DNA of 64,000 nt from a phage. The notes under the pieces were generated by a model. That model saw only the letters and a program-made list of their open reading frames with translations, did no database searches and was not told the origin of the DNA. Made by a program: the position numbers and the translations under genes. The DNA lies in the sequence record PZ738962.1; one strand, given 5' to 3'. Of the stretch, positions 31,573-59,104 are shown piece after piece (position 1 is the stretch's first letter; every line of letters starts with the position of its first letter).

Positions 31573-31776
31573 TTATAGCTCAAATTTCATGAAAGTTCCT
31601 ACACTTTCATTTTCATTCTCTCCGTTCTCATCTAAGCCAAATTTGTAGACACTACCATCTGGAGATGTGTAAGAGAATACACGAAAACGGCCTACCGGGT
31701 CAAGTTCTGTAAATTCATATTCTTTTCCGGCTTCAAAAAGTGCATATGTGCTTTTAAGACATTTCATCGTAATCAT
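31573..31776 (-). CDS. hypothetical small protein (67 aa)
   Basis: ATG overlapping upstream stop (ATGA). Confidence 0.5.
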   Translation of the reverse strand: MITMKCLKSTYALFEAGKEYEFTELDPVGRFRVFSYTSPDGSVYKFGLDENGENENESVGTFMKFEL

Positions 31777-32504: not shown

Positions 32505-33140
32505 TTAATCTAATGTAGAAAGCAAATGTTTTGTTTCTTTCAGTTGTCGTTCAAGATTTTTGCGTTTCTCTTTAAGTTGCATTTTAGCATTATTTCGCTC
32601 TCTTGTAACCTCTTTATCAATGCTCTTATTCCAGTTATCAATATCAGAATAAGTTGGCATACCCAGTTCTAGACCTAATGCGGTTGGATGCAGGGTAACA
32701 GTCCATAAACCGCTAATCTTCTTAAATAGGTCGGGGTGTAGTGTACTATCTACATCTTCCGGTGTCAACTCTTTTTCTTCTTTCAGTGGTGGGATCTCGT
32801 CATATGGTTCCAGTGCATTTACTTTAATATCAGATACCTCATCAAAGAATCCGCGTACATCCGCAGGAAATACACAAGCAATTTCCCAACCGCGATCACG
32901 CAGAGAAGTAATATTTTTCACTCCCCCACCATGTGTGATGATTGAGGTGACATTGCCATCAAGGTCCACCGAATTTACGAGAAATGGCTTATCGTCTGTC
33001 AGATCATTATAAAACTGTGCTTCGGCTGTAGTCATCTCCAGAAACAGATCTCGGATCGGACGACCGTCAGGTGCGTTACCTTCCTTGAGAGTATAAAAGC
33101 GACTTACGATCCATTTTGGCGGTAAAGCATTAGCGATCAT
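32505..33140 (-). CDS. hypothetical protein (211 aa) with HGGG motif
   Basis: ATG with AGGAGATATAAC upstream; ITHGGGVKNI motif; basic coiled-coil C-terminus; no family confidently recognised. Confidence 0.55.
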   Translation of the reverse strand: MIANALPPKWIVSRFYTLKEGNAPDGRPIRDLFLEMTTAEAQFYNDLTDDKPFLVNSVDLDGNVTSIITHGGGVKNITSLRDRGWEIACVFPADVRGFFDEVSDIKVNALEPYDEIPPLKEEKELTPEDVDSTLHPDLFKKISGLWTVTLHPTALGLELGMPTYSDIDNWNKSIDKEVTRERNNAKMQLKEKRKNLERQLKETKHLLSTLD

Positions 33141-33190: not shown

Positions 33191-34603
33191 TTAGAAAGTC
33201 ATGTTATTTGCTAGCTCGTCGAGTTTTTCTCGTTTCTCGGCTTGTTGTGCGCTTTGTGGTTTAACTTGTGCATTCTCCTGATCTGCGATCTGGTTTGATA
33301 CTTCATACCAACGCTGATTGCCTTTTTTCACACCAACGTTAAACCGTGAATAATAGTTCTTGTCACCGTAACGAGACTTGATCTGCTTCATGAGTTGAAC
33401 GCCCATTTTAGCCAGGTCTTCGGTTTCGATAACACCCAACATAAAATCGGCTGTAGCCGGAAGACCTGCTGATTCAGCGGTATCACTCATGTTAAGGTCT
33501 GACGCATCCCAACCTGCGCGGGTAGTCTGTGCCGCAGTCCAACCAACAACATCCCACTTAACAAAAAATCCTCGCAGTTCTTCCGCAATCGCCTTAACTA
33601 GTGTGTAACTATTTTCAGAGTATACACGCAAGCGAGACGATGCGCAAATCCCCAGATAGTCAACAATCACAACATCAGGTTTAAACTGTTTCTTGAGTCG
33701 CAATTCATTCATTAACGCCTCAAAGTGATTGGAGTTCGCGCCACCAGTCGGATACTGCTTGATCATCAATTTTCCAACCGGACGATCTCCGATCTTCTTA
33801 TTCTTAACACGCTTCATACGTGCGGAATATTCCGCAAAAGAAACATTACCATTATCCAATTCATCTAATGTAATGTCAAGCAAGTTTGCGTCGATACGTT
33901 TGGCTACGACATGCTCTGCCATCTCCATTGAGATATACAATACATCATAACCACATTCCATATAATCCGCAGCAAGAGAACACAATCCAAGCGATTTACC
34001 AACATTTACACCAGCAAGCAACACATTTAGCGTTTTTCTTTCCGCCCCTCCTTTCGTGATTTTATTCAACATCGGCAGCTTAAACGGGATCTTATTCGCT
34101 TTAGTCTGATATAGCAAGAATCGTTTTTCAAAGTCATTAAACCAGTCATGACCTACATCAGAATCAAACGTAATGGATAGTGCTTCCTGCATGATCTCAG
34201 GAATAGCTCCCTCACTCGGCAATTTCTTATTCTGTTTCTCTTTTGGTAGTTGTGCGTTCGCCTGAATCTCTAGCGCCCGTGACATTGCATTATACATGGC
34301 ACGGTCACGAATAAATTTTTCTGTTTCCTTCATTAACCAATCAAGGTCTTCCGGTGTATTCTCCAGCGAATCAAGAAGAGTTTTAGCCCCTTCATATGTT
34401 GTCTGATTGCCTCTCTCCTTGTCCAAAGCAATCTGTAATGCAGTTGGCGTAGGAATATTGGAATATTCGTCTACGTGCTTTTTAATCAGCTTATAAATCA
34501 GTTTTTCTTCGTCTTCGGTGAAGTAGTCCGCTTTAAGGTGAGGCCATACATTCGTAAAGAATGCGCCATTGTAAATCAACTGTGAAAAGATAGTTTTAAT
34601 CAT
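33191..34603 (-). CDS. 41: replicative DNA helicase gp41 (DnaB-like)
   Basis: 470 aa; Walker A GVNVGKS, DnaB-like motifs; collinear with T4 gp41 as recalled. Confidence 0.9.
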   Translation of the reverse strand: MIKTIFSQLIYNGAFFTNVWPHLKADYFTEDEEKLIYKLIKKHVDEYSNIPTPTALQIALDKERGNQTTYEGAKTLLDSLENTPEDLDWLMKETEKFIRDRAMYNAMSRALEIQANAQLPKEKQNKKLPSEGAIPEIMQEALSITFDSDVGHDWFNDFEKRFLLYQTKANKIPFKLPMLNKITKGGAERKTLNVLLAGVNVGKSLGLCSLAADYMECGYDVLYISMEMAEHVVAKRIDANLLDITLDELDNGNVSFAEYSARMKRVKNKKIGDRPVGKLMIKQYPTGGANSNHFEALMNELRLKKQFKPDVVIVDYLGICASSRLRVYSENSYTLVKAIAEELRGFFVKWDVVGWTAAQTTRAGWDASDLNMSDTAESAGLPATADFMLGVIETEDLAKMGVQLMKQIKSRYGDKNYYSRFNVGVKKGNQRWYEVSNQIADQENAQVKPQSAQQAEKREKLDELANNMTF

Positions 34604-48058: not shown

Positions 48059-49528
48059 CTATTCCCCATTACCATTATACTTTCTTTGCTTAGTTATCCA
48101 CACTCTAACCATCTCTACAGATTCGCCGTCAGACGGATCAAGAGTTTTTCCTTTTTTCTTCATGCGGTACTTAAATCCGTTAAATCTTGCATTCTCTTGC
48201 TCGTTAAAGTCGAACATCTTTTTAAATGATTTTCGCCCTTTACGCTCACCACATTCTAGCGGAATCATTCGGTCTGTTATTACATTGGCATTAGGCAGAA
48301 ACGTTTTTAGATAATCCACCAACGCCCAATCAGGAACATATAGATTAACATTCTCCTTGCTCTCGTTGTCTCTCAGGTTACAACGCAAACATAATTGAAA
48401 TGCTGGTTCCAGATAATCAGACACATGACGCGCTTTCAAAAACTCGTTTGTCGGGAGATCACAACTATTAGCAAGACCTTTTAAAATATCAATCTCCCAT
48501 CGTTGAGGGTTAAAGCTGAACATCACAGCAACATTTTTATGATGAATGTAAGAGTTAAGACCATAAGATCCGTAAGGTATCCGCTCACCAATACCATTTG
48601 TACACGCTTCACGGTCCCGATTCACGGTATAAATGAAGTCATCGCCACATTCATTTTTAACCATATCAACAAGACGTTCAAAGGTATTGTTTGTTTCTGA
48701 CTGGTGACGCGACCAGCGTTCGGAGTCCGTCATAAGGATGATGTTAACTCTATCTGTATTTTTATATTCTTTGAAATATAGTCTGGATTCTAGCGCACTC
48801 GGAACAAAATCGCAATTTGCATAGTATCGTAGATACTTCCCACTATATGTATCAAAGAGATTTGCACATGCTATCGTAACCTTTTTAAAGTCTCCCCACG
48901 TACCGTGTTTGTTATCGTTCAAGAAAACAATTTTCGACCCATTCTTCCGGTGTCCTTCGTTATGTTTTACCATAACGTTGATTTTCTTCTCTAATAACGC
49001 CTCATAAAGCCCTCTAAGAGAAGAATCGATCATATCAGTACCATCCTTTGCACTTTCTATCTTTTCTTTGATAGCGGCCTTCTCAGAGTCTTTTAGAACT
49101 AAGTTCTGTAGGCATTCCGATTCGTCGGCGATTGGTTCGCAATGCTTCGTGATAAGTTCAAGATTAGACTTAAACGGATACTCATTAAATTCAACCAGTT
49201 GAGGAACTTCATCAATGTAAAGAGCATATTCACCAAACATTTTTGAACGTTCCATATTAGATAACGCTGTATGTGTAATGAATATCACATCAGCACCGTC
49301 TTTAACTGATTGCATTATCGACGCTTGCACTGTCTTAAGGCTTCTTAGTCTTGTGCTATCAATCAAGACAGCACGACCGCCCATTCTTTTAAACTTATTG
49401 TAAGATTGTTCACTTAAAACACGAGATGGCGAAGCAATAACCGCTTTTTCTTTTGTCTCTAGGACGTGGGAAAGTATAGCATCAGTTTTCCCAGCCGCTG
49501 GCAATGCGATTAATGTTTCAATCTTCAT
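48059..49528 (-). CDS. uncharacterised P-loop NTPase, helicase-like N-terminal domain (489 aa)
   Basis: Walker A IALPAAGKT, motif Ia-like ASPSRVLSEQ, Walker B LYIDEVP; C-terminal 300 aa without recognised motifs. Confidence 0.6.
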   Translation of the reverse strand: MKIETLIALPAAGKTDAILSHVLETKEKAVIASPSRVLSEQSYNKFKRMGGRAVLIDSTRLRSLKTVQASIMQSVKDGADVIFITHTALSNMERSKMFGEYALYIDEVPQLVEFNEYPFKSNLELITKHCEPIADESECLQNLVLKDSEKAAIKEKIESAKDGTDMIDSSLRGLYEALLEKKINVMVKHNEGHRKNGSKIVFLNDNKHGTWGDFKKVTIACANLFDTYSGKYLRYYANCDFVPSALESRLYFKEYKNTDRVNIILMTDSERWSRHQSETNNTFERLVDMVKNECGDDFIYTVNRDREACTNGIGERIPYGSYGLNSYIHHKNVAVMFSFNPQRWEIDILKGLANSCDLPTNEFLKARHVSDYLEPAFQLCLRCNLRDNESKENVNLYVPDWALVDYLKTFLPNANVITDRMIPLECGERKGRKSFKKMFDFNEQENARFNGFKYRMKKKGKTLDPSDGESVEMVRVWITKQRKYNGNGE

Positions 49529-49995: not shown

Positions 49996-50254
49996 AAATC
50001 GCCCTCAGTTCTTTATAGCCTCCAATGTGCTCGTTGTCAATGAATATCTGGGGGTATACAAATCGGAGGCTCTTTGAGTTCAGCCTCCCCGCCAGTTCTT
50101 CAATCATATCACGGTCGGGAATAATGTCAACCCCGACCTGCTTGAATACTGGTTTAAGTGTATACGGAATACCCAGATCATCCAGTAGCTTCATTGCACT
50201 AATACAACCATAACAATGATAAGCCTCTTTCGGTATGCCGTATATCTCGATCAT
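49985..50254 (-). CDS. glutaredoxin/thioredoxin-like protein (NrdH/NrdC-like, CYGC active site)
   Basis: 89 aa; CxxC active site near N-terminus, C-terminal IGGYKELRAxY glutaredoxin signature. Confidence 0.75.
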   Translation of the reverse strand: MIEIYGIPKEAYHCYGCISAMKLLDDLGIPYTLKPVFKQVGVDIIPDRDMIEELAGRLNSKSLRFVYPQIFIDNEHIGGYKELRAIYDY

Positions 50255-50748
50255 TTCTCAGCCTTTAATCTTTCTAGTTCTTCTTCCAGTTCCTTGATCC
50301 GTTGGTCACGTTCAAAGTCACGCTGCAACTTAGTGGCGAATACTCGTTTAAACTGATTGTAATCATCGATTTTAAACACTTCTTCTTCGCCATAGCGACG
50401 TACAGAAACTTCGTAGTTATTGAATAATTGTTCCAACATTGCATCAGTAGTCAGTTCTGACGACACCACTTTAAAATAACGTTCTTCTGATTGCAAAAAC
50501 CAGTTGTGCGCGTATTCCCGTACATCATCAACATCTCGACAGGTGTATGTTTTTCCATCAATTTCAATCGCAGAAACATATTCGATATCTGAAGCAATTT
50601 TTTCAAAAGCGATAACTTTAAATGTACGGTCACCGATAAAGTCTGCTATTGCATCATTTGCAACACTGGTTGCAAATGCTTTCCGCGCTCGCTCGTTTTT
50701 CCACTGATAGGTCATACCAACAACAAACATATTACCATCAACAAACAT
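50251..50748 (-). CDS. paralog-family protein A1 (WKxxxAxxxF...IEIDG...ERYFKVV module)
   Basis: start at ATG 50748 with GAGGA upstream; 5' end contains an 18-bp perfect tandem duplication; shares module with 50750..59044 paralogs. Confidence 0.55.
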   Translation of the reverse strand: MFVDGNMFVVGMTYQWKNERARKAFATSVANDAIADFIGDRTFKVIAFEKIASDIEYVSAIEIDGKTYTCRDVDDVREYAHNWFLQSEERYFKVVSSELTTDAMLEQLFNNYEVSVRRYGEEEVFKIDDYNQFKRVFATKLQRDFERDQRIKELEEELERLKAEK

Positions 50749-50749
50749 A

Positions 50750-51574
50750 TTACCATCCTCGCTCTTTACCAATCAAAAATTCAACTTCACGACGTTTAAT
50801 GTCTTCTTGAAGGTCTTTAATCTTCTGGCGATCTTGCATGATTTCATCCATCTTGTCAAGTGCCGCAATGAAATCATCGAAACGTTCAAAGGTTTTACCT
50901 TCATTTGCTTCGCCAAATTTAACCATTGTCAGGCCGTAACGACTACTAAACAGACGTTTCAACTGTCCAACGATCTTAGAATCAGTGGTTATAACTTCCA
51001 ATTCTTCTACTTCACGAAAGAATTTTCTATCAGAATCAATAAACCAGCTAGTTCCTTTATGGTCTCTATCTTCGGTTGCGCTCATTAGAGTATGGTCTTT
51101 ACCATCAATTTCAATTACATCAATTTGCCCACATGGACGAACATTTTTAACAGTAAAAGGTCTATAATTTATTGCTCGTGCAATAACATAATTAAGATTA
51201 GATACGTTTTCAGCATAATGACAGAAGTCGGTCATAGCATTCGCATCTTTCCAAGTATAAGTTTTACCAACTTCCCATTTCTGGGGAACTTCTTCAACTT
51301 CACGAAAGAATTTTCGATCGAATGGACTAAAGAAATATGTTGCAGTCCAAATGTCTTTTCCTGTAGCAGTTTTCGCCGTATGATAAACACCGTCTAGCTC
51401 TATTGCATCAATCCAACCGTTATCATCGATCTCGATGATGGTAAATGGCTTGTCACCAATAGCTGCACTAATATCGCTGTTAAGTGGAGAAAGAACACCT
51501 TCTCCGTTAGTAATAAACTCAGTTTTAGCGTTTTCATCTTTCCAGGTGTAGGTTTTACCAATTTCCCATTTCAT
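50750..51574 (-). CDS. paralog-family protein A2 (two tandem copies of the module)
   Basis: 274 aa; MKWEIGKTYTWKD...FDRKFFREVEE then QKWEVGKTYTWKD...DSDRKFFREVEE; coiled-coil tail. Confidence 0.6.
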   Translation of the reverse strand: MKWEIGKTYTWKDENAKTEFITNGEGVLSPLNSDISAAIGDKPFTIIEIDDNGWIDAIELDGVYHTAKTATGKDIWTATYFFSPFDRKFFREVEEVPQKWEVGKTYTWKDANAMTDFCHYAENVSNLNYVIARAINYRPFTVKNVRPCGQIDVIEIDGKDHTLMSATEDRDHKGTSWFIDSDRKFFREVEELEVITTDSKIVGQLKRLFSSRYGLTMVKFGEANEGKTFERFDDFIAALDKMDEIMQDRQKIKDLQEDIKRREVEFLIGKERGW

Positions 51575-51586
51575 AATATATTCCCC

Positions 51587-52051
51587 TTAACCGATTTTAT
51601 CAAGTTCGTTTAATGCTTTCTCTGCTTCCTGTATAGCTTGCACCCTTTCCGGCATTTTGTCAAGAAAATCTTTCAACTCTTCAAAACTGGAGATATGACG
51701 CAATGCGTTAGCACCGATAGCCGCATGTGATTTGCATTCAAAGCGGATTTTATAATTATCCATCGCCAACTTGAGAAGATCAATTAATTTAGATTCTTCT
51801 GGAATAATAATTTCTTCAAATCTGCTACGGTCATGATCCAGAAACCAACAAGATAGACCTACATCGGTTGAACTCATATAAGTTCCATCATGAAGATAAA
51901 CAGACCGCACGTATCCTTTTTTCGCATCAACCGACGCAACTTTAAACGGTAATCGCAGATATTTCAAATAATCAACATCATACCATTTAAAAAATTGGTT
52001 TGCATCTTTTACATCTTTCCACGCATAGGTCTTACCAGCTTCCCATTTCAT
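51587..52051 (-). CDS. paralog-family protein A3
   Basis: start set to ATG 52051 (MKWEAGKTYAWKD) by paralog alignment; track ORF starts 5 codons upstream. Confidence 0.55.
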   Translation of the reverse strand: MKWEAGKTYAWKDVKDANQFFKWYDVDYLKYLRLPFKVASVDAKKGYVRSVYLHDGTYMSSTDVGLSCWFLDHDRSRFEEIIIPEESKLIDLLKLAMDNYKIRFECKSHAAIGANALRHISSFEELKDFLDKMPERVQAIQEAEKALNELDKIG

Positions 52052-52055
52052 AATA

Positions 52056-52583
52056 TCATCTCTCATTTTTGATACGTGATTCTAATTGGATCATACGGTC
52101 GCGCGTTTGTTTGTATTCTCGGATAGCACCGATCCGGCTAGGCATACCATCCAGTACGCTCTTAATACCTTCTAGGGTAGTGATTTTAGCAATGCTATTA
52201 TGCAACCCCATCTTATCGATCAACTGAATGTCGTAGGCTTCCATAAGCAGACCCAGACGTTCTAAAGTTAGGTCTTCTTCTTTTTCTTCAGAATCTGGAA
52301 TCTTAGGTTCAATAATAACTTCGGTAAAGAAACGACGCTCACCCGACCAAAACCACACACCGGAACAGCCAATAGGGGATTCTTTTAACGTCATAGAGTC
52401 GAAATCACTACCAATAATAGTAATTTCTCTAACATCACCATCATCGTCAAGGTCTTCTACCCTAAACGGGCGACCAGCCAACAAGTCAACAATACATCTG
52501 TTAATAGACGACGAAAATTTAGTCAGTTCGGCTTTCGACGCTTCGCATTCAATCTTGTAAGTTTTACCAACTTCCCATTCCAT
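52056..52583 (-). CDS. paralog-family protein A4
   Basis: start at ATG 52583 (MEWEVGKTYKIE) with TTGAGGTG upstream; ERRFFTEV motif. Confidence 0.55.
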   Translation of the reverse strand: MEWEVGKTYKIECEASKAELTKFSSSINRCIVDLLAGRPFRVEDLDDDGDVREITIIGSDFDSMTLKESPIGCSGVWFWSGERRFFTEVIIEPKIPDSEEKEEDLTLERLGLLMEAYDIQLIDKMGLHNSIAKITTLEGIKSVLDGMPSRIGAIREYKQTRDRMIQLESRIKNER

Positions 52584-52593
52584 AATAATCACC

Positions 52594-53096
52594 TCAAATA
52601 ATTTTCACTGGAATACTATTAACAATCTTGTATTGTACTTGATTGTCAGACCCCCGCCACGGCTTCTTCGTTGGCATATCTTTAATATAACGCCCATCGA
52701 TGAACATGTCAACTGATTCTACAATTTTTCTTTGCTCATCATTCAATTGGTCAAGGGTATAACCGGACCATAGCCAAATATCTTTATTTGGCATCCATGA
52801 TTTTACTTCATCGATGATCCGCTGTACACCCTTTAAATTGCGTTTATACAATGGATCGCCACCTAAGAATGTTAGCCCCTGAATAAAATCAGGTCTAAGC
52901 AGATCCAGAATCAATCCCATTGTATCATCGGTGAATGGTTCCCCGTTCTTAGGATTGAGTAGGCTAGCATTAAAGCAACCATCACATGCGTGTGAACATC
53001 CGGTAACGTAAAGGGAGACTCTCACTCCCTCACCGTTAACCATATCACAATCTTTAATATCGGCATAGCGTAGTTTGCCGTATGTATCAGAACTCA
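52594..53096 (-). CDS. nrdG: anaerobic ribonucleotide reductase activating protein (radical SAM)
   Basis: CxxxCxxC motif GCSHACDGC; similarity to T4 NrdG region; start at ATG 53096. Confidence 0.85.
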
Positions 53097-53239
53097 TATT
53101 CAATTACCCCGAACTCGTTTACAATCTGCGCTTTATAGTAACCACCGCGAGATGCTAATAGATAAGCTGGGCTTAGGTATTCGTATTCACGGATTTCTAC
53201 TTGTGCGTTTTCAGTTTCCCAAATCAGTAAAGTCCACAT
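53087..53239 (-). CDS. hypothetical small protein (50 aa from ATG)
   Basis: ATG at 53239 preceded by GGAGAATCAAAT leader downstream of PeSL promoter; track ORF start would lie upstream of the promoter. Confidence 0.4.
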   Translation of the reverse strand: MWTLLIWETENAQVEIREYEYLSPAYLLASRGGYYKAQIVNEFGVIEYEF

Positions 53240-53281
53240 ATTTGATTCTCCTGTAAAGTTGTATCTCGTCTTGATGAATAT

Positions 53282-53310
53282 AGTATAGGGGATCTCGCGA
53301 TCCCCGTCAA
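53282..53310 (-). promoter_or_regulatory. PeSL-type early promoter (TTGACG-N17-TATACT) with GGGGATC.../...GATCCCC stem-loop
   Basis: inverted repeat GGGGATCGCGAGATCCCC within spacer. Confidence 0.55.
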
Positions 53311-53314
53311 GCAT

Positions 53315-53842
53315 TTATTTTAAATTTTTTCGAATGTAGTCAGACCATTCCTTCCCTGTCAGTTCGGTCCCATTCTGGAAACTGAAATATTCATACGGCA
53401 TCGAGTCAAGATAAAACAGGATCATACATCGCGCCATATAATACCAATCACGATTAAAGTAAACTACGTTATCGCCAGTACCATCAGCACCTTTATCATA
53501 ACCATCGCGGGTACGGGCGACCCATTGAATAGTATCAGTTTTCTCACGGATCGTAACAGGTTCCCAATATCCAGCACATCCAGCATGACCACACGAACAA
53601 GTAAGGAAATATTGTCCTTTTGCTTTGTTGTCATCCCATTCACGATGGATTGGTTCGATCTCGTGAAACAGTGCTAAGCAATCATGATTATGCAACACTG
53701 GCTTACCATCAATCAATGCATGGAATGTATACAAACGACCAGTAGACAAATAGTTATCTTCTCGCTCTACAAGTTCAATAGCAATCTTTTTAGCTCGTTC
53801 TTTGTGTCGTTGTGCTTTACGCTTACGGTTTAATGATTTCAT
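53315..53842 (-). CDS. hypothetical Cys-rich protein (175 aa from ATG)
   Basis: ATG at 53842 with GTGTGAGGTG upstream; basic N-terminus; CSCGHAGCAGYWE cluster. Confidence 0.5.
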   Translation of the reverse strand: MKSLNRKRKAQRHKERAKKIAIELVEREDNYLSTGRLYTFHALIDGKPVLHNHDCLALFHEIEPIHREWDDNKAKGQYFLTCSCGHAGCAGYWEPVTIREKTDTIQWVARTRDGYDKGADGTGDNVVYFNRDWYYMARCMILFYLDSMPYEYFSFQNGTELTGKEWSDYIRKNLK

Positions 53843-53859
53843 ATTCACCTCACACATTA

Positions 53860-54399
53860 TCAAAGGTCGCGATATAGTACATTATGAAAATGAGAACTTG
53901 CATTACCAATATTGTAGATAATAAATTCTTCATCCGGCGCTTGCGCTACAAATTGAGTATGAGCAACCGCCACAACCTTAAAAATACGATCCGTGATCTT
54001 GTGTTTAATTTCTGCCCCTACTTCCATAGGAACATATTCATTTGTTTCTGTTTCAGTCGCAAAACAGCCATCTTCTTCATAAGCACGAACAAATCGATCG
54101 CAATCAGTACGCTTAACAAATTCAAGAGTATACAATTCTCGTGAATTGTCGGTATAGACCAATACAGAATTATTATGATAGCGAATCACATACAGGTTAT
54201 TATCATCGTCAATTACGCAAAAGCTACGGATTCCTTCGCCTTGACTCCAACAGATATTAACCACCGTTCCTCTAATAAAAAAACTTTCCTTTAAATTAAA
54301 ACTAGTCAATGTGCTAGCGTGCATTTTAACAACAACACCATCGCCAATTTCCAGTTTACGAAGTTTAACTTCTTTGTTCAGTACACAAAACATCATCAT
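53860..54399 (-). CDS. hypothetical protein (179 aa)
   Basis: ATG with ACGAGAGGACAAC upstream. Confidence 0.55.
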   Translation of the reverse strand: MMMFCVLNKEVKLRKLEIGDGVVVKMHASTLTSFNLKESFFIRGTVVNICWSQGEGIRSFCVIDDDNNLYVIRYHNNSVLVYTDNSRELYTLEFVKRTDCDRFVRAYEEDGCFATETETNEYVPMEVGAEIKHKITDRIFKVVAVAHTQFVAQAPDEEFIIYNIGNASSHFHNVLYRDL

Positions 54400-54428
54400 G
54401 TTGTCCTCTCGTTGTTTTCGATGTGAGC

Positions 54429-54456
54429 ATTATACATTAGCTAATCATGTTGTCAA
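54429..54456 (-). promoter_or_regulatory. sigma70-type early promoter (TTGACA-N16-TATAAT)
   Basis: consensus hexamers; drives 53860..54399. Confidence 0.55.
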
Positions 54457-54460
54457 CACC

Positions 54461-54494
54461 CCAAAACGAAAAAGCCGACCCTTTCGGATCGGCT
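54461..54494 (-). terminator. intrinsic terminator (minus strand) after nrdD
   Basis: hairpin AGCCGATCCGAAAGGGTCGGCT followed by UUUUCGUUUU on minus strand; same stem family as 6335 and 16292. Confidence 0.6.
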
Positions 54495-54499
54495 GAAAT

Positions 54500-56362
54500 T
54501 TACATGTGCTTAACGCGGTTTACCATCTCGGAGTGTTTCCCGTGGTTGAATGGACGCAGATCAACAGATCCAAGATATCCACTAACGCGACGGATAACAT
54601 TCATCTTTTCCAGATTGTCATTACCGCAATCAGGACAAACAAAACCAGACTCGGTCGCTCTCATTTCCTTAGTAGATCCGCATACATGACATACATCAGA
54701 AGGAGTATTAACACCGAAGTAGTGCAATTTATCCATTGCATAGTCTACTACAGTTTCAAGACCTTTCAGGTTGTTTTTCATGTCTGGGAACTCAACATAA
54801 GAGATCATGCCACCGGACGCCAGCCAGTGATAATCTTTCTCAAAGTCAATTTTCTCAAATGGAGTGACTTTCCGGTCTACGTCAAGGTGGAATGAGTTGG
54901 TGTACCAGTCTTTATCGGTAGCACCCTTAACAATACCAAATTGCTCTCGGTCCAGTCGATTAAATCGATAGCAAAGGCTCTCGGCTGGAGTACCGTAAAG
55001 ACTAAACCCAAGTCCGGTTTCGTCCTTCCATTTTTCAGTATAATGACGCAAGATCTTAAGAATATGTTTACCGTATCGCTGCGCATCTTCCGAATCAAAC
55101 GGATGAACACCAAACAGGACGCTCAATACCTCATGTAAACCAATATATCCAAGAGAGATACTAGCGCGACCATCTTTCAACACTTCCAAAATTTCATCGT
55201 TTTGATGAATACGGAAAAACGCACCTTCGGTATACAGCACCGGAGCAACATTGGCTTTAGCCCCTTTTAAAGCGTCTACGCGACTCATGAGCGCATCAAA
55301 GCAAATAGGCATACGATTGGCTAGCTCTTGTTCGAATAGCTCAATTCTGCGCATTACAGACGCTTTACCAGCACGACGCGCGGCAATAAGGGCAATACGC
55401 GGAAGATTCAGGGTCACAACACCCAAGTTATTACGTCCGTCTAATACTTCTTCGCCTTTCTCATTATGCCACACACCCAGGAAGCTACGACAACCCATCG
55501 GGCTAACCGGAACACTAGATCCGGTGATACTACGGTTATTCTTCGCAGAGATATAATCAGGGTAAAGACGCTTACTAGAACATTCCAATGCAAGTTGCTT
55601 AATGTCGTAGTTCGGATCTTCCGGTTTAAGGTTTAATCCTTCTTCTAAGAACATCACCAGCTTAGGAAACACCGGAGTGATACCATCTTTACCTAAACCT
55701 TTAGTTCGAACGTTCAGGATCGCTTTCTGAATCAGTTTTTCTTCCCAGCTAGTACCCATACCAAAGGTTAAAGTCACAAAAGGCGTTTGACCGTTGGTGG
55801 AGAACAAAGTGTTGATTTCATATTCCAACGCTTGATACCCGTCTAAAGTTTCTTTTTCTGTCTTCTCTTGTGCATAGAGAGTATCAGCTTTGATTCCGTA
55901 GGTTTCGGCATCAGCAAGGTGTTTATGATATGTTTTCTCAACATACGGTGCTAACACCTGATCGATGTTTGCGATTGTGGTCCCGCCATATTGATGACTT
56001 GCCACCTGTGCGATAATTTGAGCGGTTACAGCACAAGCAACGCCGATTGATTTCGGACTTTCGATTTGTGCGCTACCCAATTTAAAACCATTCTCTAACA
56101 TGTCTTTGAGATTAACAAGACAGCAGTTAGTAAACGGCATAGCGGGTGCATAATCCATATCATGATAATGAATGTCACCGTCTACATGCGCTTTATAGAT
56201 GTGCTCAGGTAACACGGTTTTAGCAATCTGTTTAGACACAGCACCAGCAATCAGATCTCGACGTGTCGGGAATGTTCGCGCGTCTTTGTTCGCGTTCTCT
56301 TTGCTTACTTCGTTTTCTTTACCCGTTGCGATCTCTGTAATGTCTTTGATTAGTTTTTCCAT
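54500..56362 (-). CDS. nrdD: anaerobic ribonucleoside-triphosphate reductase
   Basis: 620 aa; C-terminal glycyl-radical region RRVSGYLG and zinc-ribbon CHVCG...CPDCG; uninterrupted ORF. Confidence 0.9.
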   Translation of the reverse strand: MEKLIKDITEIATGKENEVSKENANKDARTFPTRRDLIAGAVSKQIAKTVLPEHIYKAHVDGDIHYHDMDYAPAMPFTNCCLVNLKDMLENGFKLGSAQIESPKSIGVACAVTAQIIAQVASHQYGGTTIANIDQVLAPYVEKTYHKHLADAETYGIKADTLYAQEKTEKETLDGYQALEYEINTLFSTNGQTPFVTLTFGMGTSWEEKLIQKAILNVRTKGLGKDGITPVFPKLVMFLEEGLNLKPEDPNYDIKQLALECSSKRLYPDYISAKNNRSITGSSVPVSPMGCRSFLGVWHNEKGEEVLDGRNNLGVVTLNLPRIALIAARRAGKASVMRRIELFEQELANRMPICFDALMSRVDALKGAKANVAPVLYTEGAFFRIHQNDEILEVLKDGRASISLGYIGLHEVLSVLFGVHPFDSEDAQRYGKHILKILRHYTEKWKDETGLGFSLYGTPAESLCYRFNRLDREQFGIVKGATDKDWYTNSFHLDVDRKVTPFEKIDFEKDYHWLASGGMISYVEFPDMKNNLKGLETVVDYAMDKLHYFGVNTPSDVCHVCGSTKEMRATESGFVCPDCGNDNLEKMNVIRRVSGYLGSVDLRPFNHGKHSEMVNRVKHM

Positions 56363-56375
56363 TGTATCACCTATG

Positions 56376-56396
56376 AAAAAGCGGGATTTCTCCCGC
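56376..56396 (-). terminator. intrinsic terminator (minus strand) after 56407..56901
   Basis: hairpin AGCGGGA-GAAA-TCCCGCT followed by UUUUU on minus strand. Confidence 0.55.
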
Positions 56397-56406
56397 TCGT
56401 TGATAG

Positions 56407-56901
56407 TTATTTTACCAGTTCTGCTAATTCTTTTTCTTTAGCTTCTAGTTCAGCTTTAAGCTGTTTAATCTCTTGTCGCTTCTTATTAGCGGCTTCCTGC
56501 TTACTATTTCGGATAACCTGATCTAGATACAACTCCCAATCCTGAATATTTTTGATAATGTATCCGTCAACATTAATTGGTCGGAGATTCAGTACAGCTT
56601 CCAGTTTAGTCGCAAAAACTTTAATTGCTGGCGTGAAGTATTCATATTCGTTATCTTCAAACCAATAACCTAGACTTGCATTATCAATACGAAGACGAAG
56701 TTCAAGATCAAGGTCTTTATCTTCGGTGTAAAGATCTTTCACCTGACCCAGCGAACTAACAACAACTTTAAAACGAATTTTATCTACACCACCAAACACA
56801 TCAGTAAGTATACCAGCAATTGAGCTATTAGCGCAAGATTGGTCGCTGAATGCGTCAAGGTTTTCTTTAGTTACAGTATACCAAACATCTTGTACCCACA
56901 T
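56407..56901 (-). CDS. hypothetical protein with C-terminal coiled coil (164 aa)
   Basis: ATG with GAGAGGATTATATT upstream. Confidence 0.55.
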   Translation of the reverse strand: MWVQDVWYTVTKENLDAFSDQSCANSSIAGILTDVFGGVDKIRFKVVVSSLGQVKDLYTEDKDLDLELRLRIDNASLGYWFEDNEYEYFTPAIKVFATKLEAVLNLRPINVDGYIIKNIQDWELYLDQVIRNSKQEAANKKRQEIKQLKAELEAKEKELAELVK

Positions 56902-56931
56902 AATATAATCCTCTCGTTGTTAAGTGGGAGT

Positions 56932-56959
56932 ATTATAGCATACTCCCTTCGCATGTCAA
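56932..56959 (-). promoter_or_regulatory. PeSL-type early promoter (TTGACA-N16-TATAAT) with GGGAGTA/TACTCCC stem-loop
   Basis: inverted repeat GGGAGTATGCTATAATACTCCC. Confidence 0.55.
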
Positions 56960-58134
56960 GCACTAACTTTTTTCTTTACTGCTTTCACCTTCTGGCGAAT
57001 TGCTCGAATCTCTTCGATCTCTTTTTCAGTCTCTTTAACAATTTCTTTGCGATTCTGAATATCTGTATCTAGATTATCATCAAGTTTAGGCAGCATGTCA
57101 ATCAAGAACTTTTTAAAGTCTTTCAGGTTTCGGATAACAGCACCTTCACCCATTACCGCCACGCCTACACCATCCGGCAGATCACCAAACAGCTTAACCA
57201 GTTCAGACAGATGATCATGATCTTCTAGTGCTTCTTCCGGTTCAGATGGCAGTTCAACAAAGTTATAACGTTCATCATTGCTGATCAAGTGATACCAGCA
57301 AAGACCGAAAGATTTCGGTGTATATTCTACACCATCAATTTCAACCGCGTCAACACTTCCATAATCATCTACTTTAGTTACCTTAAATCCTTGTCCCAGC
57401 TTTTGAACAATTTCAACAACATGACTTGATACAGTTTCAGCGGTAAACCAATATGGCAAATTATGCTGATTTGGTTTGTAGCGTTCACCTACTTTAAATC
57501 TCTGACCATCCGCTTGCATAGAATGAAATTGTTGTTTCGTGATTTCCGCGAAGTATTCAAATTCGCTACCGTCAAACAAGCAATTCCATTGATCACAAAA
57601 ACGGTCCGCCTTGACGGTTTCACCTTTCGCGGTGATCATGGTAGCTGATCCGTGCAATTCTTCTTCAACTAAAAAGCCATATTCGACAAAATCAACAAGT
57701 TTCATGGCTTCTTTGTGCTCTGGGTCATGCTCTCCCCAGAATCGCTTAAATTCTTGCAAACCTTCTGGGGTAAACGAATAACATTTACCTTTTTCAAAGT
57801 AAGTCGGCATTGCATCCTCTTTCTTGTTCATCGCTTCGTATGCCTCTTTTGAGATACGTTTAAAGTATTTGCGCTCATTGTGCATAATCATAGTAGACCA
57901 ATAATAAACGATATCCTCAGCGGAATAAACTACATCTCCAGCTTCAATAGTAATAACATGACCGTGGTCATCTTTTTCTAATACTTTAAAGCCCTTTTCT
58001 ACGATTTCAGCAACCCGAATATGACCACGGCGCGAAGCATCGGTCAGAATAATTGAATAGCGAGAAAAGTCTAGAAACTCATCTTTACCGCCTTCACGGA
58101 ATGCATAGTAATGACCTTCAAAGAATTTAGCCAT
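56956..58134 (-). CDS. paralog-family protein A5 (392 aa, multiple copies of the module)
   Basis: repeated x-IDG/IEAG...ERKYF-like modules (NERKYFKRISKEAYEAM, DERYNFVEL) plus coiled-coil tail. Confidence 0.55.
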   Translation of the reverse strand: MAKFFEGHYYAFREGGKDEFLDFSRYSIILTDASRRGHIRVAEIVEKGFKVLEKDDHGHVITIEAGDVVYSAEDIVYYWSTMIMHNERKYFKRISKEAYEAMNKKEDAMPTYFEKGKCYSFTPEGLQEFKRFWGEHDPEHKEAMKLVDFVEYGFLVEEELHGSATMITAKGETVKADRFCDQWNCLFDGSEFEYFAEITKQQFHSMQADGQRFKVGERYKPNQHNLPYWFTAETVSSHVVEIVQKLGQGFKVTKVDDYGSVDAVEIDGVEYTPKSFGLCWYHLISNDERYNFVELPSEPEEALEDHDHLSELVKLFGDLPDGVGVAVMGEGAVIRNLKDFKKFLIDMLPKLDDNLDTDIQNRKEIVKETEKEIEEIRAIRQKVKAVKKKVSA

Positions 58135-58165
58135 AATATAATCCTCTCGTTGTTTAGATGGGAGT

Positions 58166-58194
58166 ATCTTACTACTCCCGTTTCATCATGTCAA
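58166..58194 (-). promoter_or_regulatory. PeSL-type early promoter (TTGACA-N17-TAAGAT) with GGGAGTA/TACTCCC stem-loop
   Basis: near-identical to copies at 14646 and 15226. Confidence 0.5.
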
Positions 58195-58757
58195 GCGTTA
58201 AATGACTTTTGGATCTCTTTCAGTTCAGCTACTTTATCTGCGCTGAATTTAGCGTAGGTATCATGTCGAATAATTTCACTTTCAAGAAAGGTTTCCAGCC
58301 GAGATCTATTTTCAATAAGGAACTCTTTCAGGTCTTCTGCGTTCTTGATAAAGATTTTATTGTCGGTAATGTCATCTTCAATCGCAAAGGAGATAGAGCG
58401 AACTTTACCAAACAAGTTAATCAGATCTTCCAGAGATTCTTCTTTCTTAACTGGTTTCATTTCTTCAAACTGCTTTTTAGTGATGCGTTTAAAGTATTTG
58501 CGCTCGCTTGCATCAATCATGATTGACGCACCCTCATAATCATGAGTTTCTACCAAATACACTTTACCCATAACATTAACCGTAAGAACTTTAAAGCCCC
58601 TGTGAAGCACACCATACAGGAACTTGTTATGTTGTGGGTAGCGTTTAACAAATTCCTCTGCGGACTCAGCATTACGGAAAGTGTAATAACGACCTCGTTC
58701 AAAAACAGCATCAGTTGAAGACTTAGCCGGATACAATTTATACGTTTTCTGTACCAT
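58191..58757 (-). CDS. paralog-family protein A6
   Basis: start at ATG 58757 with AGAGGATTATATT upstream; SERKYFKRITKKQFEEM motif. Confidence 0.55.
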   Translation of the reverse strand: MVQKTYKLYPAKSSTDAVFERGRYYTFRNAESAEEFVKRYPQHNKFLYGVLHRGFKVLTVNVMGKVYLVETHDYEGASIMIDASERKYFKRITKKQFEEMKPVKKEESLEDLINLFGKVRSISFAIEDDITDNKIFIKNAEDLKEFLIENRSRLETFLESEIIRHDTYAKFSADKVAELKEIQKSFNA

Positions 58758-58771
58758 AATATAATCCTCTA

Positions 58772-59044
58772 TCATTTCACTAATTGAACAGCACGGAACA
58801 GAATGCGCTCACACGGAAGCAGCATAAATTCCCAACGCGGATCAAAGTCTTTAGCGGTGTATGTTTTCCCATCAACCGAGATTTCACTTACATAACCAAC
58901 AGGTGACACTTTAAGAACAGTAAACCCATTCTTGATGACTTCGTAGGTATCTTTCACCCCTTCGTATTCATCATCTAAGAAGTCTTTATGTGCTTGCTCA
59001 GATTTAAAAACATAGGCAACACCGGATTTAAACATCTTACGCAT
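58772..59044 (-). CDS. paralog-family protein A7 (90 aa from ATG)
   Basis: start at ATG 59044 after GGAGAATCAACA leader; ISVDGKTYTAKDF motif. Confidence 0.5.
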   Translation of the reverse strand: MRKMFKSGVAYVFKSEQAHKDFLDDEYEGVKDTYEVIKNGFTVLKVSPVGYVSEISVDGKTYTAKDFDPRWEFMLLPCERILFRAVQLVK

Positions 59045-59075
59045 TGTTGATTCTCCTTCTTGATTAGATGGGAGT

Positions 59076-59104
59076 ATTTTACTACTCCCATTTCTTATTG
59101 TCAA
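59076..59104 (-). promoter_or_regulatory. PeSL-type early promoter (TTGACA-N17-TAAAAT) with GGGAGTA/TACTCCC stem-loop
   Basis: same cassette as 58166; directly after gene 49 stop. Confidence 0.5.

Follow-up and report, generated by a model that had tools for sequence, protein, structure and literature searches.

An expanded paralogous set of GoF/Frd.2/MotB.1 family genes in an RB49-like T4-type bacteriophage

The bacteriophage T4 proteins GoF (comC-alpha, 141 amino acids (aa)), Frd.2 (128 aa) and MotB.1 (119 aa) were placed in one family by Kim et al. 2025 (PMC12152347). GoF has been known genetically for about 50 years; not until 2025 was the family defined, and its wild-type members are still without an assigned function. 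The substitutions D25Y and G84R in GoF suppress restrictive rho alleles, and GoF(D25Y), but not the wild-type protein, lengthens the half-life of RNA carrying the gene 41 leader, an effect that is post-transcriptional and independent of Hfq (PMC12152347). GoF is an abundant T4 early protein, with ~20,000 copies per cell, both GoF and MotB.1 run in part as dimers (PMC12152347), and knock-down of frd.2 lowers T4 fitness in one CRISPRi-ART screen. Here we analyse a stretch of 64,000 nucleotides (nt) of phage DNA (sequence record PZ738962.1; hereafter the window), and in particular an 8.8-kb interval within it (50251-59044) where a group of small genes flanks nrdG and nrdD. The window comes from an RB49-like T4-type coliphage (genus Krischvirus, family Straboviridae), and the interval is 95-98% identical in nucleotide sequence to ~56 RB49-like coliphages, the best match being phage kaaroe (98.2%; RB49, 97.2%). 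The genes of this group almost certainly belong to the GoF/Frd.2/MotB.1 family of T4-type early proteins, of which they form an expanded set of paralogues.

Eight genes of the interval (A to H) and one outside it (X) encode proteins built from a recurring module of ~90 residues (Table 1). A preliminary description of the interval had listed seven to eight such paralogues. The seven genes first listed are all intact minus-strand open reading frames (ORFs), and the eighth is E; the count falls one short, since X lies elsewhere in the window. Alignments of the modules contain the motifs noticed at the outset: a (K)WExGKxY start, a conserved Phe ~10 residues further on, an FKV strand, an IEIDG-like strand and an ERKYF/DRKFF/ERRFF element. 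Three columns are invariant across the 12 modules. One gene had been thought to carry the module twice and another several times, and these are B, with two copies, and F, with three. The window therefore holds 9 genes and 12 modules, 11 of them inside the interval and one in X, and T4 by comparison has three genes and three modules, so that the paralogous expansion is real. A scan of the remaining RB49 genome yielded no more members, the weak matches RB49p109 and p125 having E-values of at least 0.02.

The significance of the shared motifs was assessed by scoring each module on a profile from which every module of its own gene had been removed, with 1594 six-frame ORFs as background; as a control each module was shuffled 200 times and the best score kept. 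Scores ranged from 25 to 62 bits (E 1e-6 to 4e-18; E-values from such small local databases are relative only), except for E with 15.4 bits (E 0.0015), and the best of the 200 shuffles per module reached only 4-10.5 bits. The two profile domains of B, ~100 bits each, still gave 62 bits each when gene B was left out, and the three domains of F scored 83-98 bits (57835-58134, 57520-57813 and 57220-57510). Most gene pairs gave 30-52 bits in pairwise BLASTP. Identities between copies are just 20-35%, as might be expected if unrelated small ORFs resembled each other by chance or in composition. That explanation is effectively ruled out by scores of 15-62 bits against at most 10.5 for shuffles, by matches that span the full module length, and by the recurrence of the same fold in two independent models (D and E).

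By sequence, E is the weakest member. When the alignment of E orthologues was compared with the other modules by hhalign, they matched at 91.6% (E 8e-7) over 84 of ~90 columns. The AlphaFold2 model of E has the architecture of that of D, and Foldseek searches of BFVD, a set of predicted viral structures, retrieved one and the same group of phage proteins for both models, among them a protein of phage VR7 named GoF. A profile built without X gave X 21.6-24.9 bits (E ~1e-6). The region of the ER motif in X, VRGFFDEV, is the one most like that of T4 GoF (EAGFFDEV). X has the gene 41 helicase (33191-34603) on one side and the primase gene 61 downstream. X thus adjoins gene 41, and the only known molecular phenotype of T4 GoF(D25Y) concerns gene 41 mRNA. 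Also adjoining gene 61 is a 67-aa ORF (31573-31776, minus strand; phrog_9181) whose N-terminus, FEAGKEYEF, weakly resembles the module start, at a level that is not significant (E ~0.5-0.8).

The preliminary description could assign the module to no family and looked to Pfam for a match. A Pfam search of all eight interval proteins gave sub-threshold noise only and no model for the module. In PHROGs, A-D matched phrog_5347, F and G matched phrog_8944 ('goF mRNA metabolism modulator') and H matched phrog_16115; cross-matches included, families labelled goF were matched by A, B, F, G and H. In RefSeq, too, 'goF mRNA metabolism modulator' is the name given to the orthologues of F and G in RB49, that of F bearing the label 'frd.2' as well. 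With hmmsearch the module profile matched residues 4-91 of T4 GoF at 33-42 bits. With hhalign it matched GoF at 96.7% (E 4e-10, residues 2-89), Frd.2 at 83.9% (E 8e-6) and MotB.1 at 37.5%, the latter two being more distant from the modules than GoF.

A broadened profile was built from 97 domains found in an exhaustive search of 1.8 billion representatives, matches of 400 aa or more being left out. Against a six-frame translation of the whole T4 genome it found GoF (66.7 bits), Frd.2 (29.7 bits), MotB.1 (15.3 bits) and nothing else, the next match having 8.8 bits (E 0.17); on the Krischvirus genome it found 9 genes and 12 modules. Since it recovers exactly the three T4 founders, the family definition and the profile agree both ways, and the module can be equated with the N-terminal domain of GoF, of Frd.2 and of MotB.1 (PMC12152347). 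The exhaustive search gave 95 clusters at E<1e-3. Five of six inspected long matches (at least 904 aa) were judged false positives caused by 'IDGVTYT'-like or similar repeats; the sixth, P0133, is not clearly repetitive in that way. A word-indexed profile search of proteins retrieved only the Krischvirus orthologues of D, G and E.

T4 GoF resembles the Krischvirus proteins in that its N-terminal domain aligns over its full length, in its barrel-linker-C-terminal layout and in its FeoA-like fold neighbourhood; it is the product of an early gene, as the Krischvirus proteins may be. It differs in having one module only, followed by a short C-terminal domain that lacks the long helical tail, whereas the Krischvirus set includes double and triple tandem modules and one bare module, and its genes occupy other genomic positions. 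Several Krischvirus modules, moreover, naturally have an aromatic or basic residue where GoF needs D25Y or G84R to gain activity. Frd.2 and MotB.1 are found by the same family profile. The RB49 gene labelled 'frd.2' (F) and the frd.2 of T4 are not in syntenic positions; the RB49 slot between frd and gene 32 holds other genes, not F. The family, its fold and the goF label of F and G are already known. We have found no description of the size of the Krischvirus set, of the membership of A-E, H and especially X, of the C-terminal alpha/beta-plus-helix domain that the proteins share, of the mosaic of alleles at module level, or of the GoF suppressor positions mapped onto residues natural in the paralogues.

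Structures of D and E were predicted as AlphaFold2 monomers from shallow alignments (22 and 27 sequences). Both show the same SH3-like barrel architecture, and prediction of one copy had been among the checks suggested. In the D model (overall predicted local distance difference test score (pLDDT) 79; means of 10-residue blocks over the module 76-94, mostly 83-94) the elements follow in the order beta1, two helices, beta2, beta3, beta4, beta5, and the strands form a bent antiparallel five-stranded sheet of SH3/LSm-like type. The E model (pLDDT 89.7) follows this plan but contains one more helix, located in the variable segment between beta3 and beta5. The module is accordingly modelled as an SH3-like beta-barrel of ~90 residues, present in one to three copies per protein. 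In both models a linker of low pLDDT (residues 93-103 in D, where it is acidic and disordered, and 94-96 in E) leads into an alpha-beta-beta-helix domain, which in D comprises a helix, two short strands and a helix of 38 residues.

The nearest solved structures are FeoA-type proteins at 15% identity, and the structural neighbourhood matches that published for GoF. Small barrels usually score low, and these do; the scores therefore support the fold class, yet we draw no functional inference from it. The top 60 structural matches included no Hfq chain and no protein described as Sm or LSm, and 'SH3-like' is therefore the more neutral name. FeoA (PF04023) and the SH3-like domains of the DtxR/IdeR repressors share a likeness of fold only. 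The array proteins have no sequence relationship to them (no Pfam match), the metal-binding histidine pattern is missing, as stated for GoF (PMC12152347), and the context is that of a putative phage early gene and not of iron transport. Foldseek found 67 matches in BFVD at E<1e-3. No functional annotation occurs among the matches listed, nearly all of which are from T4-like phages of Escherichia, Proteus, Edwardsiella, Aeromonas, Citrobacter, Morganella, Pectobacterium, Cronobacter, Enterobacter and Serratia, with phAPEC8 and CBB in addition. Several phages give two to five matches each. The expansion is thus not strictly lineage-specific, as had been supposed; multi-copy status appears common, with Krischvirus at the high end.

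Seven of the eight interval genes, all but H, extend beyond the module, and in alignment the extensions show a short alpha/beta element and then a long helix. Most copies had been credited with a coiled-coil tail; the fold of the extensions was modelled for D and E only. In leave-one-out comparisons the homology of the C-terminal part was significant for B, C, E and F and marginal for A and D, and comparison with the C-termini of T4 GoF and Frd.2 gave no signal. BLAST alignments of A with B, C with D, C with G and F with G continue through the module and the C-terminal part, which indicates duplication of whole genes. In the explanation favoured here a flexible acidic linker joins the barrel to the C-terminal part in every protein except H, and the long helix would mediate dimerisation.

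Table 1. Positions of the family genes and of the candidate regulatory sites in the window
Feature	Coordinates	Strand	Description
Gene A	50251..50748	-	165 aa; one module, C-terminal domain and helical tail; leave-one-out 49.0 bits; phrog_5347
Gene B	50750..51574	-	274 aa; tandem modules B1 (51287-51574) and B2 (50990-51286), C-terminal domain
Gene C	51587..52051	-	154 aa; one module, C-terminal domain; leave-one-out 45.9 bits
Gene D	52056..52583	-	175 aa; one module, disordered acidic linker (93-103), predicted C-terminal alpha-beta-beta-long-helix domain
Gene E	56407..56901	-	164 aa; most divergent member; one module, C-terminal domain; leave-one-out 15.4 bits
Gene F	56956..58134	-	392 aa; 'frd.2' label in RB49; three tandem modules, C-terminal domain; phrog_8944
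Gene G	58191..58757	-	188 aa; one module, C-terminal domain; isoelectric point 8.5, sole basic member; 47.7 bits
Gene H	58772..59044	-	90 aa; bare module without C-terminal domain; 53.6 bits; phrog_16115
Gene X	32505..33140	-	211 aa; ninth member, outside the interval, directly downstream of gene 41 helicase; phrog_16187 'unknown'
Putative promoter/stem-loop cassette upstream of H	59050..59104	-	TTGACA, 17 nt, TAAAAT; GGGAGTA...TACTCCC arms around -10, then ribosome-binding site
Putative promoter/stem-loop cassette upstream of F	58140..58194	-	near-identical to the H cassette
Putative promoter/stem-loop cassette upstream of E	56905..56959	-	perfect TTGACA-16-TATAAT, extended -10 TG
Hairpin GCGGGA-GAAA-TCCCGC, then TTTTT	56376..56396	-	between E stop and nrdD start; read directly from the sequence
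Promoter-like site TTGACA-17-TATATT (11/12)	52684..52712	-	inside 3' end of nrdG; consensus match only

The interval genes are all on the minus strand. They are set into a conserved backbone of 55, 55.2, nrdH, nrdG, nrdD, 49, nrdC and dam, with A-D in the slot between nrdH and nrdG and E-H in the slot between nrdD and gene 49. The T4 order over the equivalent backbone is nrdH-55.8-nrdG-mobC-nrdD-49, and the two groups therefore occupy a pair of slots that hold next to nothing in T4. The three ORFs that separate nrdG from nrdD have PHROGs matches unrelated to the module family. We propose that the set arose by tandem duplication of genes and modules, and that reshuffling between phages continues by homologous recombination, partly at promoter/stem-loop cassettes. 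DNA repeats remain between paralogues: B1, B2, C and D have a 69-nt repeat in common at their 5' ends, and E and F have nearly identical leaders. This residual identity gives a substrate for allele exchange.

The preliminary description regarded the region as prone to recombination and its genes as under diversifying selection. We compared the window with eight Krischvirus genomes by the Nei-Gojobori method, calculating the ratio of non-synonymous to synonymous divergence (dN/dS) per gene, per module and pooled; the eight pairwise comparisons share phylogeny. Core neighbours (55, nrdH, nrdG, nrdD, 49 and others) have protein identities of 98-100% and dN/dS of 0.03-0.07. The family genes have pooled dN/dS of 0.17-0.28, the modules alone 0.20-0.35 and the C-terminal domains 0.05-0.24, and no value above 0.35 was obtained at any level in the eight comparisons. 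Divergence comes in blocks, as the suggestion of a recombination-prone region would have it. The A module is only 64-77% identical to that of most isolates (dS 0.8-1.0) and identical to that of MIZ4; four of the eight isolates have a 65%-identical allele of the G C-terminal domain (dS ~1); module 1 of B is replaced in 011D4, and module 3 of F in Phi1 and 011D4. In combination with dN/dS near 0.25-0.3, the high dS points to old alleles imported by recombination plus relaxed purifying selection, with no demonstrable positive or diversifying selection. Substitutions spare the core motifs and are concentrated in helix 1, in the loop between beta2 and beta3 and in the segment from beta4 to beta5.

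Individual alleles differ in other ways as well. Gene A of the window has an 18-bp tandem duplication at its 5' end (50715-50750), giving MFVDGN-MFVVG, which it shares with phages MIZ4 and phiS; its product is ~74% identical to the RB49/kaaroe allele, between flanks that are 97-98% identical. The gene C orthologue of phage FL15 (L008 4322-4802) has one additional A in an A6 run and is split into two annotated coding sequences, reflecting either a homopolymer sequencing error or natural inactivation, and hence dispensability.

In RB49 and phi1, promoter-plus-stem-loop (PeSL) cassettes have been described that mediate modular shuffling (Arbiol et al. 2010, PMC2839356), and several array genes had been thought to have a PeSL promoter of their own. 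Such cassettes do lie directly before H, F and E; A-D are packed end to end without intergenic space, and G starts 14 nt after H. The three cassettes consist of TTGACA, a spacer of 16-17 nt, a -10 hexamer (TAAAAT, TAAGAT or TATAAT) straddled by the arms GGGAGTA(T)/(A)TACTCCC, then GAGGA and ATG, and they fall in the DNA repeat families D3, D4 and D8. They resemble the published PeSLs (PMC2839356) in the fusion of a strong sigma-70 promoter to a G/C stem-loop, in their situation in hyperplastic regions with ORFan flanks and in their association with nrdD. They differ in that the stem-loop straddles the -10 instead of preceding the promoter, and in having no T-run. Judged by sequence, all three appear to combine a sigma-70 consensus with a stable G/C-rich stem-loop in an intergenic position beside an ORFan, and H, F and E may be expressed early from these putative promoters.

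The hairpin downstream of E, which a consensus scan did not list, looks like a terminator; with its own promoter upstream and this hairpin and T-run downstream, E looks like a self-contained cassette. The promoter-like site inside nrdG could drive the D-C-B-A block. A further arrangement is found after nrdD, where a 9-bp G/C hairpin with a T-run (54494-54473, minus strand) precedes a perfect TTGACA-16-TATAAT (54456-54429). This classical PeSL-type pair sits upstream of an ORF at 53860-54399 (phrog_14838, unknown).

For the function of the array we propose the following scheme. The proteins would be made early from sigma-70 promoters, would be individually dispensable, and would act as stoichiometric, probably dimeric adaptors that bind, by means of the barrel, some component of RNA metabolism. 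The partner may be RNA or, likelier given the acidity of the proteins, a host protein such as an RNase, the degradosome or a Rho-linked factor; different paralogues would present different binding surfaces, and the outcome would be a tuning of the stability of phage mRNAs. Taken as a whole, the explanation that combines the family set, the barrel architecture, the duplication history and adaptors of RNA metabolism is the one we favour on balance, with modest assurance. Its mechanistic part, early and dimeric adaptors acting on mRNA metabolism, is put forward tentatively, as something that may well be wrong.

The positions of the GoF suppressor mutations bear on this scheme. At the column of D25 the twelve modules have Y, N, a gap, W, F, F, F, E, R, D, Q and M (five of the twelve Y, W or F), and at the column of G84, the third position of ER(K/R)(F/Y)F, they have K, K, R, S, R, K, E, Y, K, I, E and G (six of the twelve K or R). 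B2, D and F1 combine an aromatic residue at the first with Lys or Arg at the second. D25Y and G84R thus shift GoF towards residues natural in many paralogues, which suggests that some paralogues may be natively active. It is a doubtful but conceivable extension that several Krischvirus paralogues exist natively in the 'activated' state that GoF reaches only by suppressor mutation. The array would then consist of constitutively active dimeric adaptors, protecting mRNA or countering RNase or Rho with differing specificities, X being the closest to GoF; we regard this version as speculative to the same degree.

Several points weigh against the adaptor explanation. No function is known for wild-type members of the family, and wild-type GoF and MotB.1 had little effect in a reporter assay (PMC12152347). 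The comparison of the D25 and G84 columns comes from a single profile alignment (23% identity), the long helix is credited with dimerisation on the strength of monomer models only, and the C-terminal homology of G and X was not significant in leave-one-out comparison. Eight of the nine proteins and 11 of the 12 modules are acidic or neutral (isoelectric points 4.4-6.7; most proteins 4.4-5.3), G being the only basic protein. The proteins are thus unlikely to bind RNA in general, and a partner that is a protein, or else a specific site on RNA, is favoured.

The same acidity is typical of protein-binding inhibitors, and the preliminary description had expected the genes to encode effectors of host takeover or anti-defence. 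The barrels would then be decoys or inhibitors of variable host factors or immune sensors, their diversity being kept up by an arms race. The genes do belong to hyperplastic regions that contain mobile promoter cassettes, SH3 and Tudor folds classically serve in protein interaction, copy number differs between phages, divergence between isolates is far above that of neighbouring genes, and alleles are swapped block-wise. The divergent blocks are, however, also saturated in dS, and dN/dS never exceeds 0.35, pooled or per module. The PHROGs and Pfam searches, which included no dedicated anti-defence search, gave no function-assigned family except for the goF label, and the only known phenotypes of the family concern mRNA level and rho alleles. 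We therefore consider anti-defence a possible role, though a fairly unlikely one. The rho phenotype would also suit action at the level of transcription, as in the original antitermination idea for goF, with Tudor/KOW-like modules docking on RNA polymerase, Rho or NusG to modulate termination. This is improbable, since GoF(D25Y) works post-transcriptionally through a longer RNA half-life (Kim et al., PMC12152347), the unrelated RNA-binding protein Rop produces the same suppression, and the structural matches are weak and generic. Less probable again is that the proteins are true LSm/Hfq-like RNA chaperones that form rings and bind RNA directly. Kim et al. call the fold 'LSm-like', list Hfq among its structural relatives and model RNA on GoF(D25Y) (PMC12152347); both groups have small, bent, five-stranded beta-sheets, the only known phenotype of the phage family is RNA-related, and G is basic. 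But the array proteins match neither the LSM nor the Hfq model of Pfam, the family has no Sm motifs, its two helices lie between beta1 and beta2 instead of one N-terminal helix, all but one of the modules are acidic or neutral, and AlphaFold3 gave no confident hexamers or other multimers for GoF or MotB.1 (PMC12152347).

RB49-type phages give ~5.5 kb, ~3% of the genome, to the nine members of the set. The array is of moderate interest, chiefly as material for assigning function to GoF-type proteins: it offers natural variants with double, triple and bare modules, some with the residues that activate T4 GoF, and it is genetically tractable, so that loss of the whole set might finally show a phenotype. 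If some paralogues are indeed natively active, the wild-type function of a family unexplained since the 1970s would through them become directly accessible for the first time. The array also illustrates a route by which a phage can copy a small domain, exchange it and let it diverge on a scale finer than the gene, with promoter/stem-loop cassettes and short DNA repeats as the means.

Two further features of the backbone were noted. A 489-aa ORF between genes 55 and 55.2 (48059-49528, minus strand; phrog_2467, unknown) is 99.6-100% conserved among the isolates compared, and the Sf20 record annotates its orthologue with a P-loop/DEAD-box helicase-like domain. Phages PHB13 (L006 12631-13386) and Sf20 (L010 12617-13372) have, between nrdC and dam, a gene for an HNH homing endonuclease that is absent from the window. 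Their dam alleles are strongly diverged from that of the window (dS 0.6-0.7), which is consistent with co-conversion of flanking DNA by homing.

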